64,000 bases of DNA from Eledone cirrhosa (Eukaryota), in the NCBI GenBank assembly GCA_964016885.1, contig OZ024760.1:23002001-23066000 (forward strand), given 5' to 3'. This document shows positions 18,992 to 63,707 of this stretch, in pieces. Positions within the stretch are counted from its first letter, which is position 1. The number at the start of each line of letters is the position of its first letter. Made by a program: the position numbers and the translations under genes. Below the pieces are notes generated by a model. That model was not told the origin of the DNA, did no database searches, and saw nothing but the letters and a program-made list of their open reading frames with translations.

Positions 18992-19039
18992 AATATATAT
19001 ATATATATAAGATAAAAAGATGGTTAAAAGAGTTCCAAG

Positions 19040-19110
19040 TATTTTATTATGCGCATTTCAAAAACAAATACATTCACGAGATGATATCTGCGTGTTCATC
19101 AGATAAAATA
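19040..19110 (-). ncRNA. Type I hammerhead ribozyme motif
   Basis: tattttat CTGATGA acacgcagatat...gtatttgttttt GAAA tgcgca TA ataaaata. Confidence 0.75.
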
Positions 19111-19228
19111 GGGATACATGATATGAAGGTTAAAACACACTTGTAAATAGTGCAGTTTTAAGTCAATATATGTTGATTTAAAACTGCACTATTCACAAGT
19201 GTGTTTTAACCTTCATATCATGTCTCCC

Positions 19229-19299
19229 TATTTTATCTGACGAAAACGCAAATGTTATTGCATGATGATATTTGTTTTTGAAATGCACATAATAAAATA
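19229..19299 (+). ncRNA. Type I hammerhead ribozyme motif
   Basis: tattttat CTGACGA aaacgcaaatgttatt-gcat-gatgatatttgttttt GAAA tgcaca TA ataaaata; 8-bp stem I and long stem II. Confidence 0.8.
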
Positions 19300-19329
19300 C
19301 ATGGAACTCTTTTAACCATCTTTTGATCT

Positions 19330-19369
<40 letters not shown>

Positions 19370-22944: not shown

Positions 22945-24135
22945 CAAGGTTTCTGGTTTAGGCCCAAAGCCAACTATTTTTAGGGATGGCTGAAAAGTTG
23001 ATTAAATCGGCCCCAGTACATTACTGATACTTTATTTTATTGACACGGTGAAGACGAAAGTTATAGGATAAGTTGACATTGACGGGGTTTGAAATAAGAA
23101 CATTAAAGGGCCGCACCTCTGCCGCACGTCATGGTGCCTGACGCTCTAGCGACACTGCTCTCGATAATAATTGTTTCGAGTTTTGGCACCATTTTCCAGT
23201 ACATTACTGGTATGGTACTTTATTTTATCGATCCCGTAAGGGTGAAAGGCAAAGTTAACCTCGGCGGGATTTGAACTCAGATCATAAAGGGAGGTAACTC
23301 TATGCCTCAAAGCATGGCGTCCGACCCTCTACCGATACTGGCAATCGACTCACCATAATAAATGCCATCTCAATAATAATAATAATAATTGTTTCTACTT
23401 TTGGCACAAGGCCAGCAATTACCCAATGCATTACTGGTACTTTATTCTATCGACCCTGGAAGGATGAAAGGCAAAGTTAACCTCGGCGGGATTTCAACTC
23501 AGATCATACAGGGAGGTAACTCTATGCTTCAATACTAATAATAATAATTGTTTCTACTTCAGGCATGAGGCCAGCAATTACACAGTGCATTACTGGTACT
23601 TTATTTTATCGACCCCGTAAGGATGAAAGGCAAAGTCAAACTCGGCGGGATTTGAACTCAGATCGTAAAGGGACGTAACTAATAATACTACTAATAATAA
23701 TAATGGTTTCTGATTTAGGCACAAGGCCAGAAAATGTTTTTGGGTAGCGGAAAGTCGATTAAATCGACCCCAGTACGTTACTGGTCCTTAATTTTATCGA
23801 CTCTGTAAGGATAAAAGGCAGAACTGACATTGGCAAGATTTGAAATAAGGACGTAAAGAGACACAACTCTATGCCACAAATGAAGGTGACCGACGCTCTA
23901 CCGATGCTAATAATCCACCACTCTCAGTAATAACTATTTCTACTATAGACACCCGGACGAGGGAGGGGAAAATCAATTAAATCGATTCCAGCGCCTTACT
24001 GGGGCTCTATTTTATCGATCCCTTAGGTATATAAGGCAAAACTAAGCGCGGCGGTATTTGAACACAAATGTAAAGGGAAGTACCTATATGGCGAAAGCAT
24101 TGTCCAGGGTTCTAATGATACTGCCAATCAACTGC
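22945..24135 (-). mobile_element. Cluster of about six head-to-tail SINE family A copies
   Basis: Core ttttatcgaccccgtaaggatgaaaggcaaag recurs at about 23035, 23225, 23445, 23605, 23795 and 24012, separated by (AAT)n. Confidence 0.9.
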
Positions 24136-24575: not shown

Positions 24576-24655
<80 letters not shown>

Positions 24656-24662
24656 TTTATAG

Positions 24663-25020
24663 ATAACAATCAAAGTACGTTTACAACGTTTAATGACTTA
24701 CGATCGTTTCATCCTATCACAAGGCTGGATTCATCAGTGTATATAATAAAGGTTGAAACACAAATATAACAGCAGCAGTTTGTCATTTATATGCTCATAT
24801 TTTTCATATGCTTCTTCCGCATTTGCTATCTTTCTTTTTTTTATATAATTGTTGACACTTATGCTTACTCCCATATTGTGTATCCTCCTAATGTTCTTAT
24901 GACAAACATCTGATATATTTGTGTTCAAACCTCTATTATATAATCCGATGAAATCGACCATGTTCTAGGGTGAAACGATCGTAAGAGATTAAATGTTTTA
25001 AACACACTTTGATTGCTATT
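24663..25020. mobile_element. Diverged fold-back element with HHR motifs on both arms ('cgatcg' family)
   Basis: 24663-24770 is inverted at about 24915-25020. Confidence 0.7.
24694..24742 (-). ncRNA. Minimal hammerhead motif
   Basis: CTGATGA atcc...ggat GAAA cgatcg TA, with weak stem I. The plus-strand partner at 24945-24983 has CCGATGA...GAAA cgatcg TA. Confidence 0.6.
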
Positions 25021-25116
25021 TCGAAAGTATTTCGTTTCGGCTCTATAATATAATAATTGTCCTTTTACATTGAGCTATTCTCATACTTGTAATTGTATAA
25101 TATTTAATATTACCCA

Positions 25117-32539: not shown

Positions 32540-32569
32540 CATATAATATATATATATATATTGCCATTG

Positions 32570-32680
32570 TGAGTTCAAATCCCGCCGAGGTTAACTTTGC
32601 CTTTCATCCCTACGGGGTCGATAAAATAAAGTACCAGTAATGCACTGAGTAATTGCTGGCCTTGTGCCTAACGTAGAAAC

Positions 32681-39410: not shown

Positions 39411-39571
39411 GTTTCTATTTTAGGCACAAGGCCAACGAATTAACCAGTACATTACTGGTACTTTATTTTATCGACCCCGTAAGGATGAAAGGCAAAGTTA
39501 ACCTCGACGGGATTTGAACTCAGATCATAATGGGACGTAACTCTATGCTTCAAAGCATGGTGTCCGACTCT
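39407..39571 (-). mobile_element. SINE family A
   Basis: Tail, core and B-box in reverse orientation. Confidence 0.9.
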
Positions 39572-39582
39572 CAGTAACACCC

Positions 39583-39791
39583 AGACGGCTGAGCTCAAGC
39601 CGTTTCGACGGCTAATTCTGGACTAATTTTTTTTTTTTTTTTTCTTTTTTTTAGTCCCTAATTAGCCGTCGAAACGGCTTGAGCTCAGCCGTCGGGGTCT
39701 TACTCGTTCCTATTACCCACTCTACTACCCTAAGTATTGAGTACTTTGGTGCGTTATGGTCCACCTGGTTCCTTACCACATTTCCTTCGTT
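39583..39791 (+). mobile_element. Fold-back element, 'gagctc' family, with a poly-T loop
   Basis: gacggctgagctcaagccgtttcgacggctaatt is inverted around a T-run at 39627-39652. Confidence 0.8.
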
Positions 39792-40745: not shown

Positions 40746-41064
40746 TATATATAGTTAGTAAGGTGCAACACATTATTTAATTACAATTGCTTTACAACGG
40801 CAGCCGGATTCGACGATGATTGTTTTGAGTGAAACAGTTCTAGTTCTGTAAAACCCATTTCTATATTAAGTATATATATACTTATTCATATATATATGTA
40901 TATATATGTATATATGAATATGTATATGTATATATATCGGTATGTTGCTTATATGCTCATATTCATAAATATACAAATCTCTCTCCCTCCTCTCTCTCTC
41001 TCGTTTAGCTCTCTCTCTCCATCCCCCTCACTCCCTCTCTCGTTTAGCTCTCTCTCTCTCCCTC

Positions 41065-42623: not shown

Positions 42624-42715
42624 ATTATTAATAATAATAAATTTCAAGACTAAAATCCAAAGAGGGCTCAATAAGGATAAATATATATCAAATATATAAA
42701 AACCGTAGAGCAAAT

Positions 42716-42935
42716 ATTTATTAAAATAACAGATTAAAGTTTAAGCAAAGAATCGCTGCTTTCACCCTTAACGGGATCTTCTGAAACTAACAAAGTCAAT
42801 CTGTAAACGCAGAACTGGATATTTCAAAAAACGTTGCAACCGGAGGAAGACGGAAGACGATACTTTGTTAGTTTCAGAAGATCCTGTTAAGCGTGAAAGC
42901 AGCGATTCTTTGTTTAATCTGTTATTTTAATAAAT
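42716..42935. mobile_element. Fold-back element, 'cccttaacggg' family
   Basis: 42716-42796 is inverted at 42862-42935. Other copies at about 7724, 44468, 45037 and 49490. Confidence 0.75.
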
Positions 42936-42991
42936 ATATATATATATATATATAATATATAAGATCAAAAGATGGTTAAAGGAGTTCCATG

Positions 42992-43062
42992 TATTTTATT
43001 ATGCGCATTTCAAAAACAAACATCATCATGCAATAATATTTGTGTTTTCATCAGATAAAACA
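42992..43062 (-). ncRNA. Type I hammerhead ribozyme motif in PLE terminal repeat
   Basis: tgttttat CTGATGA aaacacaaatattatt-gcat-gatgatgtttgttttt GAAA tgcgca TA ataaaata; all core positions canonical. Confidence 0.85.
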
Positions 43063-43869
43063 GGAGGACATGATATGAAGGCTAAAAAACACTTGTGGAT
43101 AGTGCAGTTTTAAATCAGCATATGAGAAGTAATTTTAGATTGATGTGTGATATTGGGAAAAATATTTTATTTAGAGAGGGGGGGGGGGGTGGAAAGGATG
43201 AACAAAAGGGGAGGAGATGAGAGTGAAGTTGGAGAGGGAGAGATGGGTGATAGAGAGAAAGAGATAGTTTTTATAACTGAGAAAAGATATATTGTTTTAC
43301 GTAGAGAGGTTGAAAACCGTTGGAAGATAATGTATAAATTAAAAGAATTTGAAAATTAACGAAGGGAAAAATATGTACGAAGAAGGAGAGGGAGTTAATA
43401 TGTATTGAGATTAAAAAAGTTTGATGATAGAGTGAATAGAATAATAAGTTGCGGATGAATATTCTAACGTCAAAAAAATGTGTGTATGTTTACAAGTATT
43501 ATGGAAATTTGAAAAGTAACGAAGAGAAAAAAATTAAGGTTTGTGTATTGAAGGATTTGAGAAAAATAATGTGACGTTAAGGTTTGTATGTGGAAGGAAT
43601 TGATAATATGTGCGAAGAAAGAGTTAATATGTATTAAGAATGAGTTAGATGATGGGGAGAAAAATAATAAATTAAGGATGAATAATCTGGCGTCAAAACA
43701 AATGTATATGTTACGAAGGATTTTACAAGGTGAAGATAGAGTGAGGGTAATGAGTAAACAAGTATTATAGAGTGTATAATACCCTTTGAAGTAAGGTAGG
43801 AAGATGGGTATATTTTAAAAGAGGTGTATGTATATGTGCCTTTGAGAAAAGATTCTAAATTGATAAATA

Positions 43870-44136
43870 TTAGCTGTATACTTTGTGAAATGTCTTATGG
43901 AATTTATGCAAGCAGATAGAAAACAAATCTGTACGTCTATTTATTATAGAATCTAGATTAGAGATAATGGTACATTTTTCATTTAGGCAGATATTACAGA
44001 TTTTAGATAGAGAGCTGTTCAAGTATAAGGACGCAGAAGAAACCTTCTTCCAAAATATGGTATATTTAATGTTTTTGTCTTTCAAGGACCATATGAGTTC
44101 TGAGAGAGCCGTGTTGGTTCTTTTAAGTTTGTACTT
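43870..44136 (-). pseudogene. PLE GIY-YIG endonuclease C-terminal fragment with CxxC...CxH motif
   Basis: ORF 43870-44085 extended upstream in frame, as translated in the element entry above. Confidence 0.75.
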
Positions 44137-44166
44137 TATTGTACTACAGTAAAACTCACCTCCTAC

Positions 44167-44213
<47 letters not shown>

Positions 44214-44458: not shown

Positions 44459-44953
44459 AATATATCCTTGCTTTCACCCTTAACGGGATCTTCTGAAACT
44501 AACAAGGTCAATCTGTAAACACAGAACTGGATATTTCAAAAAACGTTGCAACCGGAGGAAGACAGAAAGACGATACTTTGGTTCGTGGTAACGTTCTCTG
44601 GCAAGAACGGGAAAAAACGAATAATACGTCATTAATAGGAGCGGTGAAAAACAATTACGCGCAAAGACAAAACCACGTTTATGGTATAAAAGAGGTCGTA
44701 GACTAATGTTCTCTTAGGTGGTGCATAGAAACGTTCTCTGGCAATGAACGAAAAAACGAAGATAATAAGTCATATGTGGAGCGTAGAGAACAATAGCACG
44801 CAAAGACAAAACCACGTAAATGGTATAGCAGAAATCGTAGACTAAAATTCTAACTAGGAGACGAAATGAATCTCCGCTACGGTTCTTATATATTTGATAT
44901 ATATTTTCCTTGTCGAGCCCTCTTTGGATTTTAGTCTTCAATATTATTATTAT

Positions 44954-45041
<88 letters not shown>

Positions 45042-45117
45042 TAAGATAACAGATTAAACAAAGAATCGCTGCTTTCACCCTTAACGGGATCTTCTGAAAC
45101 TAACAAAGTATCGTCTA

Positions 45118-47560: not shown

Positions 47561-47625
<65 letters not shown>

Positions 47626-47627
<2 letters not shown>

Positions 47628-47828
47628 ATATAGAAAAGGCTTCTACAGACCTAGAACTGTTTCATTCGGGAGAAATCATCTGCAAATAATCATCGTTCCC
47701 GATGATTTCTTCCGAATGGAACAGATCTAGTCCTGTAGAAGCCTTTCTATATTAAATATTTATACTCTGGTTTGTATTGAGCACCTTACTTACTGTGGTT
47801 ACCCCCGATTGAACCCGGGATAAACTTA
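47626..47828. mobile_element. Fold-back element, 'cagttctag' family
   Basis: taatatagaaaaggcttctacag...aaatcatc is inverted as gatgatttc...ctgtagaagcctttctatatta. Confidence 0.7.
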
Positions 47829-47865
47829 TATATATATATATATATATATAAAGGGCCCCGTCAGG

Positions 47866-48186
<321 letters not shown>

Positions 48187-48495: not shown

Positions 48496-48867
48496 ATATT
48501 TGGGGAGGGTCATATTTGCGTAAATATTGCCAGAATTAATATATTATATATATATATATATATATATGAATGGCTTTTACAGGACGAGAACTGTTTCATT
48601 CGGGAAAAATCAAGAGAAAGCCGATTGTATAAATAATCGTTTCTTGGTGATGGTTAAAAGAGTCACAGTAAGTGCTATAATATATGTTTATCCCGGGTTC
48701 AATCGGGGGCAACCATTGTATGTAACGTGCTCAACATATAGCAGAGTATAAATATTCAATAAATAAATGGCTTCTACAGGACTAGAAATGTTTCATCCGG
48801 AAGAAATTACTGTTGTGACCCCCGATTATTAGCTGTCATCAACAACGTATACCTTCCTGTAGGTATA

Positions 48868-48908
48868 CGGTGTTGATGACAGCTAATAAGCTAGAAACTA
48901 TTTCATCG
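48868..48908 (+). ncRNA. Degenerate minimal hammerhead motif ('ctag' family) within hairpin 48826-48888
   Basis: cggtg TTGATGA c agct-aata-agct a GAAA ctat TT catcg. The homologue at 39128-39142 (minus) reads GAAA ctag TA catcg. Confidence 0.5.
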
Positions 48909-49450: not shown

Positions 49451-49488
<38 letters not shown>

Positions 49489-61599: not shown

Positions 61600-62469
61600 C
61601 GAGGTGGGTCAGAAAAGTTCCAGGACTGATGTCACAAAAGATTTATTTCAAACCCAAACTTCACACTAAGAGTGTTCTCCTTCAAAGTAATCCCCCTGGA
61701 GTCTAATTTCTGCCACGCTTGCATACACTCCTGGAAGGATTCTTCCGGGATCCTCCGCAGTTCCGTCGTCACGGCTTTTTTGATGTCGTCTACGTCTTCC
61801 AAACGGGTCCCCTCCGGGTCGTACTCGAAGATCCATGACTCATCATCGGTGATGACTGCCCTAGCAAATGTGGTTCGGTTTCAAGACGCTGGAGGATGTC
61901 CAGGCACACTTGCATGCGTCGACCCTTCTGGTCATCGTTCAGCAGTTCTGGCACCATCTTCGCGCAGACTTTCCGTATGTCCAAATCTTCAGTGAGAATC
62001 TTCCAGACTCTGTCCCGATTCATGCCCAGCTCATTTACCATCAGTCGAACAGTCAGCCGACGATCGCTACGCACCATCTGCCTGAAGCGCTCAACGTTGA
62101 CCTCGGGCCTGGTTGTTGAGGGCCTTCGGATCCTGGGGCCGTATTGCACCACACAAAAACACGCGAACGTGACATCGTCTCATCTCCATACACTTGCTGC
62201 AGCAATTCCATTTTTTTCTGACGAAGTTTTCCCCAACCGTACCAGAAACTTCGAGTTTGTTCGTAGCTCTGTGCTCATTGCTTGACGACCTGAAACAGAG
62301 GACATGTATATGAAATTATGTAGAAAAATGTTTGATCGCTGCAGAGAGCTAAGATTACGGTTAGATACTCTAGGGGGATTACTTTGAAGGAGAAAACTGT
62401 TCGTGTGAAGTTTGGACTTGAAATAAATCTTTCGTGACATCAGTCGTGGAACTTTTCTGACACACCTCG
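61600..62469 (-). mobile_element. Internally deleted mariner-like transposon with TA target-site duplication and inverted ends of about 100 bp
   Basis: TA-cgaggtgggtcagaaaagttcc ... ggaacttttctgacacacctcg-TA. Transposase remnants on the minus strand: MSTELRTNSKFLVRLGK..., RPST...DRRLTVR...RKVCAKMVPELL, then VITDDESWIFEYDPE joined to RLEDVDDIKKAVTTEL; most of the catalytic domain is deleted. Confidence 0.92.
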
Positions 62470-62630
62470 TATATAAATATATATATATATATATTTATTT
62501 TGGCTTGAGGGCGGCCGACCGGGGTAGAAGCTGTTAAATATTCGGTCGCCGTCATGTCTCTGATTTTCAGCCCCATCAATTTTGTCTATTATATTCCTTT
62601 GTTATTTTGAATACCTGATGATGTCACCGA

Positions 62631-62679
62631 ATACCTGATGATGTCATACTGAACCCGGTCATTGAAATGATCATAGTAT
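62631..62679 (+). ncRNA. Minimal hammerhead motif ('tgatca' family) with a duplicated 5' core
   Basis: atac CTGATGA tgtc...gtcatt GAAA tgatca TA gtat; gaatacctgatgatgtca is duplicated 20 bp upstream. Confidence 0.55.
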
Positions 62680-63098
62680 AATAAACCTTTTCAAGGAATT
62701 ACACCAGTCAAGCATCCTGTTATTTTATAATATAATATATATATATATATATAAATATATGCAAAGGTTTTATTTAAAATTGTTTGGTTACAACGAGTAA
62801 ATATTTTATAACTGATATAAAAGTACTCAACAAGTTTTGGAGTATTTTACGATATTCATTTTTCATCTCCTCAATATTTCTCTCTCCCATATCTATCTCT
62901 CTTTATTCTTTACATACATCTCTTCATTTTCTTCGTCTTCCTCTCTAACTGTCCTTAGCACTATACACTTTCTTTCTTTTTTCTCTTCGTCTTTCTTTCT
63001 AACTGTCCTTAACATTTTCACTACCAAAACAACATTTTAAATGGAAGTTGTAAAGTTTAAGGTATGTCAAATTTATTTATAAAACTGTTTATATATTG

Positions 63099-63163
63099 TA
63101 TTTTGTCTGAAGAGGGCACACCATATTTTAATATGATATCCCTGAAATATATATAATGAAATA
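63099..63163 (+). ncRNA. Minimal hammerhead motif ('tatata' family, diverged)
   Basis: tattttgt CTGAAGA ggg...ccct GAAA tatata TA atgaaata. Confidence 0.6.
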
Positions 63164-63203
63164 AATATGGTTTTATAAATGTAGTTTCCATTTGTTTAAT
63201 ATC

Positions 63204-63241
<38 letters not shown>

Positions 63242-63335
63242 GTGGAACACTGGAAGTTAATATCCGTAGTGGTAGAGCACTCAGTCCAAGGGACGAGTTA
63301 GGTAGAAGTGGTTACACAACAGTTAGTTCACCATA

Positions 63336-63375
63336 CCGAGAACAATTGTTTCACCTTAGTGGATCTTCAGCTTGG
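63336..63375 (-). ncRNA. Minimal hammerhead motif
   Basis: ccaag CTGAAGA tccactaaggt GAAA caattg TT ctcgg. Confidence 0.6.
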
Positions 63376-63415
63376 GATGTTCATGGTTATAGGCATGGCT
63401 ATAACCATGAACATC

Positions 63416-63455
63416 CCGAGCTGAAGATCCGCTAAGGTGAAACAATTGTTCTCGG
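63416..63455 (+). ncRNA. Minimal type I hammerhead ribozyme motif
   Basis: ccgag CTGAAGA tccgctaaggt GAAA caattg TT ctcgg; perfect 5-bp stem I. Confidence 0.7.
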
Positions 63456-63483
63456 TATGATGAACTAACTGTTGTGTAACCAC

Positions 63484-63564
<81 letters not shown>

Positions 63565-63567
<3 letters not shown>

Positions 63568-63707
63568 GGAACGAGTAGGAACGTCGAAACGGCTTGAGCT
63601 CAGCCGTCGGGGTCCTACTCGTTCCTACTACCCAATCTACTACTCTAAGTATTGAGTAATTTGGTGCGTTATGGTCCATCTGGTTCCTTACCACATTTCC
63701 TTCGTTA
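63565..63707 (+). mobile_element. 'gagctc' family element with a short inverted 5' end
   Basis: gtaggaacgagtagga is inverted as tcctactcgttcctac; family tail ...ttccttcgt followed by (TA)n. Confidence 0.75.

Follow-up and report, generated by a model that had tools for sequence, protein, structure and literature searches.

A probably Hydra-type Penelope-like insertion in Eledone cirrhosa, truncated at its 5' end and joined there to part of its own 3' tail in inverted orientation

The 43-kb region of a 64,000-nucleotide stretch of Eledone cirrhosa DNA (contig OZ024760.1, the window hereafter) holds what is most likely a 5'-truncated insertion of a Penelope-like element (PLE) of the Hydra clade, capped by an inverted piece of the element's own tail and probably primed on both strands of a nicked (TA)n target. 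In this insertion and in others of the window, the arms have outward-facing 3' ends, terminate at two recurring sites (A and B), and meet at short junction homologies. The 43-kb copy, a member of what we call family A, contains the following parts.

42953 to 42962, minus strand: site A, the end of the hammerhead arm, a TA-like stretch running into the (TA)n target
42992 to 43062, minus strand: type I hammerhead motif, a predicted ribozyme (descriptor and stems)
43063 to 43869, minus strand: 3' UTR, 807 nt and pyrimidine-rich, from the stop codon to hammerhead stem I
43120 to 43124, minus strand: 5'-end hot spot of short copies, a CATATG palindrome 123 nt upstream of the cleavage site
43870 to 44136, minus strand: C-terminus of a Hydra-type GIY-YIG endonuclease, last 88 codons (protein homologues and by-eye match to Fig. 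S7 of Craig et al. 2021)
44134 to 44168, plus strand: inverted 3' tail piece, the ~35 nt before site B, head-to-head with the endonuclease remnant (95% match to 55264-55302)

A sequence-only reading of this region had described an intact minus-strand frame with characteristic C-terminal motifs and assigned it to a PLE endonuclease. The frame is indeed open for 99 codons (44169-43870) and ends in those motifs, but only its last 88 codons encode endonuclease, and the first 11 derive from the inverted tail piece. The 88-residue remnant carries CxxC-E and N-CxH motifs; the GIY-YIG motif, the linker, and the reverse transcriptase (RT) are missing through 5' truncation. A phmmer search with the peptide returned 1281 homologues at E<=1e-3, and among the best 150 of these CxxC..E[KR] is present in 143 and CxH in 142. 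The CxxC/CxH-type endonuclease motifs are invariant across an alignment of 16 sequences. One 716-aa homologue (P0153) aligns with the peptide at its C-terminus (38% identity, E 2e-15) and by eye has RWR, DKT, FYPSI-like, FRDDG, and CxC-x4-C motifs, as in the Hydra alignment. The four best structural matches to the predicted C-terminal domain of this protein are GIY-YIG nucleases, with Z scores of 7.7, 6.9, 5.9, and 5.5 (all below 8; rmsd 3.0-3.8 over 83-100 aligned residues), in a model whose RT portion is of low confidence. Weak Pfam GIY-YIG matches occur in 2 of 15 scanned homologues, and a CxC..C linker pattern, from a region missing in the 43-kb copy, is found in 12 of the 22 homologues of at least 200 aa. 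By eye, about 32 of 69 positions are common to the peptide and Hydra-2_Amil, and the Penelope/Poseidon, Nematis, and Neptune rows of Fig. S7 are without the CxxC/CxH motifs. Other family A copies read CNLC and EKF, nearer to Hydra than the 43-kb copy. The homologues, the motifs of P0153, and the structural matches support the PLE origin and the tentative Hydra-type assignment of the endonuclease end that had been proposed earlier.

Other searches were less productive. Pfam had no match for the 88-aa peptide or for P0153, PDB sequence searches gave no match, Foldseek returned nothing at E<=0.001, and the ESM Atlas yielded only NUMOD matches below 0.9, which were disregarded. Word-indexed protein searches found no match; one of them spanned only 911-2600 aa and was blind to ORFs of ~700 aa. 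Within the window no RT or GIY-YIG motif of family A and no second endonuclease remnant were seen; a single HMM match (E 0.002) falls in a frame starting at 14328. Viral, metagenome, and prokaryote collections contained no related loci and no full-length copy was found, three 20-mer matches in viral contigs being taken as chance, and none of the contigs listed from sequencing runs extends the endonuclease upstream, with 259 loose ends and 8 joints outside the listing. No RT of family A was recovered, so that its place in the Hydra clade is judged from three features: endonuclease end, hammerhead, and target.

The 3' UTR is somewhat longer than the 750 bp or so first estimated, and contains a decayed duplication (43712-43605 versus 43490-43370, 74%). 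The hammerhead lies at exactly the coordinates that had been reported, 43062-42992, and consists of an 8-bp stem I, a CUGAUGA core at 43054, a long stem II, and a short palindromic stem III. It is without the usual G10.1-C11.1 pair; the cleavage triplet is AUA, with the predicted cleavage base at 43000. In the window, 11 hammerhead cores (10 cleavage sites) match the descriptor, compared with a mean of 0.06 in shuffled sequence (one match in 3 of 50 shuffles). Rfam reported no hammerhead family among the best 150 of 226 entries or the 6 entries of a second scan, the free-folding z-score is only -0.61, and two-sided covariation is absent in four copies, so the hammerhead call rests on core motifs and stems.

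The last ~165 nt of the 43-kb copy match 19168-19336 on the plus strand (92%, E 5e-67), 19172-19003 on the minus strand (85%, E 3e-51), and 55338-55491 on the plus strand (89%, E 2e-59), in agreement with the earlier observation that the terminal ~160 bp recur in both arms of a palindrome and at 55338. The 19-kb palindrome of that reading is a fold-back 320 bp in length that lies at 19 kb. The arms of these two insertions are as follows.

19010 to 19171, minus strand: left arm of the 320-bp fold-back, 162 nt of hammerhead end reaching site A; stem II is a variant
19168 to 19329, plus strand: right arm, likewise 162 nt of hammerhead end reaching site A; stem III has lost its palindromic form
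55268 to 55341, minus strand: 74-nt piece of the 3' tail in inverted orientation, with its end at site B, in (TA)n
55338 to 55485, plus strand: arm with the hammerhead, reaching site A; its catalytic core is broken by a 12-nt deletion

Between the two 19-kb arms there are 18 differences over 162 positions. Ten of them lie in the 36-nt stem II (Fisher p=0.001), most of whose pairs are kept. The clustering of differences in stem II points to two template variants. At 55 kb, the tail piece and the hammerhead arm have TGT in common at their junction. Scoring of the flanks bears out the (TA)n target, with all six outer ends of the three family A insertions in (TA)n at alternation scores of 0.73-1.0, against a background in which 21% of window 30-mers reach 0.7 and 18% reach 0.8.

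The terminus at (TA)n on the hammerhead side is a real end of the element, but it is only one of two. Site A lies 38 nt past the cleavage site and is the endpoint of all four family A hammerhead arms, and site B lies about 100 nt beyond it, past a CTC...GAG hairpin. Elsewhere, the sequence at 44134-44168 continues inward as in the 55-kb copy and not into endonuclease, in 31 contigs of sequencing run X1 and in one contig each of X4, X5, and X6 (four runs from three studies). The reverse complement of 55268-55341 aligns with the tail of family B, another hammerhead-bearing family of the window in which the tail is contiguous and downstream of the hammerhead; shuffles reached this alignment in 0/1000 and 1/1000 cases for two copies and in 37/1000 for a third. 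The forward strand fails to align (411-883 of 1000 shuffles). In addition, one low-depth X6 contig extends beyond site A by 22 letters and has a 7-nt overlap with the tail piece at 55 kb. Continuity from site A to the tail in family A is read from this one low-depth contig, which bears a different organism label, together with the cross-family similarity. The orientation test and the X6 contig indicate that 44134-44168 belongs to the 3' extension of the element itself and is inverted here. They speak against a reading of the first 37 nt as the true 5' end of the element, with the 55-kb copy as an internal-deletion derivative. A reading of the same nucleotides as the start of an intron (they contain AGGTGAGT) is likewise rejected, as both results put them downstream of the hammerhead on the opposite strand.

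Upstream, many short copies end at one place. The centre of the 19-kb fold-back and the start of the 55-kb arm at 55338 both fall at 43120-43123, and 7 of the 15 joints listed in X1 fall at the 43120-43124 hot spot, where depth also drops. Summed contig depth in X1, a relative profile and not a copy number, is 1.26-1.84 million over 42950-43117, 0.40 million just upstream, and 0.009-0.098 million over 43370-44125, and its shape is the same in X4 and X5.

Four further hammerhead families in the window also have two ends each, about 68-90 nt apart. Since no coding sequence of theirs is present here, their clade is judged from hammerhead, hairpin, and target. Among 15 hand-picked two-armed insertions, 10 are A+B, 3 are A+A, none are B+B, and 2 are unclear; among the 13 that can be classified, A+B is in excess without reaching significance (P=0.055), which is suggestive only. 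A tail piece joined to a non-overlapping arm is found at 43, 55, and 62.8 kb and in 7 of the 15 joints listed in X1.

Family B includes a perfect 326-bp palindrome at 57817-58142 (163/163 positions) with a type I hammerhead on each arm. Tail pieces lie past microsatellites on both of its sides (57608-57656 and 58352-58452), and another repeat is inserted at 58143. Two more family B insertions, at 4892-5327 and 62761-63202, are, respectively, an A+B fold-back and a tail piece with a UTR-hammerhead arm laid out like the 43-kb copy. In family C (3384-3520, 40814-40872, 47623-47826, 48568-48807, and 2569-2624), stem III of the hammerhead is longer, and a GC-rich hairpin immediately precedes site B. 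Family D (42634-42935, 44469-44950, 45035-45109, 49487-49608, 7723-7768, and 9179-9229) has a hammerhead-like motif with a CAGAAGA core variant (U4 as A) in 4 of 4 copies listed, and two of its copies flank the 43-kb insertion, forming a nested (TA)n hot spot. Family E is represented by seven fold-backs (1018-1175, 39572-39791, 47852-48044, 50346-50544, 57480-57580, 58468-58561, and 63560-63706), which retain only the 3' half of the hammerhead and are centred in or near the stem II hairpin. Two type I hammerhead motifs, at 58845-58891 and 62611-62679, belong to further families, and the second has a duplicated core.

The structure of these insertions suggests how they may have formed. The RT-endonuclease of the element would nick both strands of a (TA)n target, and on an uncleaved RNA one target end would prime at site B and the other at site A. 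Each cDNA would end prematurely, in many cases at 43120-43123, and the two would then pair via a few common bases. One RNA would suffice for a tail piece with a long arm, as at 43 and 55 kb; the 19-kb palindrome (A+A, with unlike arms) would likely take two RNAs, joined via the self-complementary CATATG. The three A+A cases would need a second RNA or a later loss of the tail. Where the tail piece does not overlap its partner arm, two priming events are indicated, since neither can have arisen by folding back and copying its partner. A more specific form of this model assigns the two strands to two RNA start sites that bracket a clade-conserved hairpin, with site A pairing with the (TA)n primer and site B not, and with most cDNAs running off a transcript start ~125 nt upstream of the cleavage site, so that ribozyme-bearing fold-backs would be mass-produced. 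We regard this joint reading as possible and put it forward tentatively.

The same element could instead have acquired its inverted arm by self-priming, in which a single cDNA folds back and is then copied. Arkhipova et al. (2013, PMC3846280) proposed this for Penelope and, in the accessible portion of that paper, read palindromes at inverted junctions in this way. Identical arms are what this predicts, and the 57.9-kb palindrome (163/163) and the 50.4-kb palindrome (55 of 56 arm positions) come close to it; the family E centres in the stem II hairpin fit self-priming too. However, self-priming cannot yield a tail piece without overlap to the partner arm, which is the arrangement at 43, 55, and 62.8 kb and in seven joints, and it predicts scattered decay, whereas the 19-kb differences are clustered. 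We consider it unlikely as the general explanation, and it may lie behind a subset, for example, the near-perfect 57.9-kb and 50.4-kb palindromes. About equally improbable is a non-autonomous unit, SINE- or retrozyme-like, that consists of the ~160-nt hammerhead end, has its transcript start at about 43123, and is mobilised in trans; the palindromes would be its copies. The sharp fall in X1 depth upstream of 43117, with X4 and X5 alike, would fit such a unit, as would the fixed 5' boundary of family B, 128 nt from its cleavage site versus 123 nt in family A; however, run-off at the start of a parent transcript would give the same boundary. The copies are dispersed and head-to-head, not tandem, their junctions vary, and a unit of this kind would alter the template and not the insertion chemistry.

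The inverted terminal repeats in (TA)n and the lack of an Rfam or Pfam match to the element might also recall a MITE, that is, a DNA transposon, or an artefact of assembly, with the peptide and hammerhead arising by chance. This is very improbable given 11 descriptor matches against 0.06 by chance, homologues of the peptide, differences at 18 of 162 positions between the 19-kb arms, and presence of the element in contigs from four runs of three studies. Unlike in a MITE, neither the junctions nor the partner arms are constant from copy to copy, and what is repeated is the 3' end of an element that codes for an endonuclease. Of the two origins offered by the sequence-only reading for the fold-backs, truncated or inverted products fit better and non-autonomous passengers less well, given the variety of junctions and the two element-defined sites at which arms end. 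Priming on both strands remains our preferred explanation for the 43-kb copy.

The published Hydra clade consists of PLEs with a C-terminal endonuclease (EN+), a canonical hammerhead near the 3' end, and insertion into (TA)n (Craig et al. 2021, PMC8557442; available parts). The 43-kb copy is like it in the CxxC and CxH motifs around conserved E and N, in the type I hammerhead motif near the 3' end, and in the (TA)n target. Further traits given there for the clade are RWK and DKT motifs in the RT, a CxCX5C linker, no CCHH finger, a length of <3 kb, and a single ORF (PMC8557442); the RT, linker, and CCHH region are missing from the 43-kb copy. By eye, the CTC...GAG hairpin after the family A hammerhead resembles the consensus ends of Hydra-1_Crog, Hydra-2_Amil, and Hydra-2_Ajap, and the 3' UTR of the 43-kb copy is longer than in the six novel Hydra consensus sequences available from that study. 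Hydra-1_Obim, a 2507-bp element of Octopus bimaculoides (PMC8557442), has the same clade motifs and (TA)n preference as family A. The two are distinct by eye in the endonuclease end and the hammerhead stems, and the 3' UTR of Hydra-1_Obim is only about 100 nt.

Inverted, 5'-truncated PLE copies with a one-sided tail of 30-40 bp are described in the accessible sections of PMC8557442 and PMC3846280, and hammerhead pairs on opposite strands 100-700 bp apart in those of PMC4209133. The insertions described here are similar in their head-to-head arms, outward 3' ends, one-sided tail, and junctions with microhomology or a palindrome. Unlike the tails in those sources, the stretch from A to B measures about 68-100 nt in five families and has a conserved hairpin, and the inverted arm can be the tail alone. 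The Poseidon element PAc of Anolis nicks and extends both strands and has two internal RNA start sites that bound a tail (Frangieh et al. 2024, PMC11167929). The two-strand model resembles PAc in having two start sites downstream of the hammerhead, an uncleaved RNA, and an AT-rich target. In vitro, the PAc start sites showed no difference between the strands (PMC11167929), and they are reported as non-homologous to the target, whereas site A of family A is itself TA-like and could pair with a (TA)n primer. Non-LTR retrozymes are short non-coding units derived from PLE ends, with a type I hammerhead and a tandem head-to-tail arrangement (bioRxiv 10.64898/2026.07.22.740005, accessible text). Family A, in contrast, is found as three dispersed insertions with head-to-head arms and no tandem arrangement.

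Inverted truncated copies, one-sided tails, opposite-strand hammerhead pairs, Hydra elements, the (TA)n preference, and an octopus Hydra family are therefore already in print, to judge from the available parts of these sources. What the sequences analysed here appear to add is a new Hydra-type family, a longer hairpin-bearing tail (about 68-100 nt), and junctions that favour priming on two strands. A literature search, with most subscription journals outside its coverage, found nothing on octopus Hydra fold-backs or on strand-specific two-site priming, and palindromes, ribozymes, and Hydra are absent from the accessible text of an O. vulgaris repeat paper (PMC13282606).

Several other repeats are present in the window. 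Further fold-backs or segments bounded by inverted repeats lie at 63321-63470, 2643-2751, 48826-48889, 24655-25027, and 54328-54873. A segment at 61600-62469 has inverted ends of ~100 bp and broken frames without a Pfam match, which we presume to recall a mariner transposase. A short frame at 13109-13372, also without a Pfam match, recalls what we take to be the C-terminal restriction-like endonuclease of an R4/Dong-type non-LTR element. A dispersed SINE-like repeat of ~120-190 bp is present in at least seven copies (1-92, 1580-1695, 23165-23349, 32564-32679, 39412-39572, 56204-56394, and 58143-58261) and adjoins two fold-backs.

The 43-kb locus itself is ordinary retroelement debris. Its wider meaning is that many small (TA)n-flanked palindromes in the Eledone cirrhosa genome are Penelope-like ends and not MITEs, and that the window is a natural data set for how the inverted repeats and tails of PLEs form. 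Five families within 64 kb have two fixed arm ends, and their non-overlapping joints of tail and arm discriminate two-strand priming from self-priming. If the assignment of strands to start sites is true, it would differ from the non-homologous initiation of Poseidon, and the inverted repeats of PLEs would be traced to it in place of self-priming.
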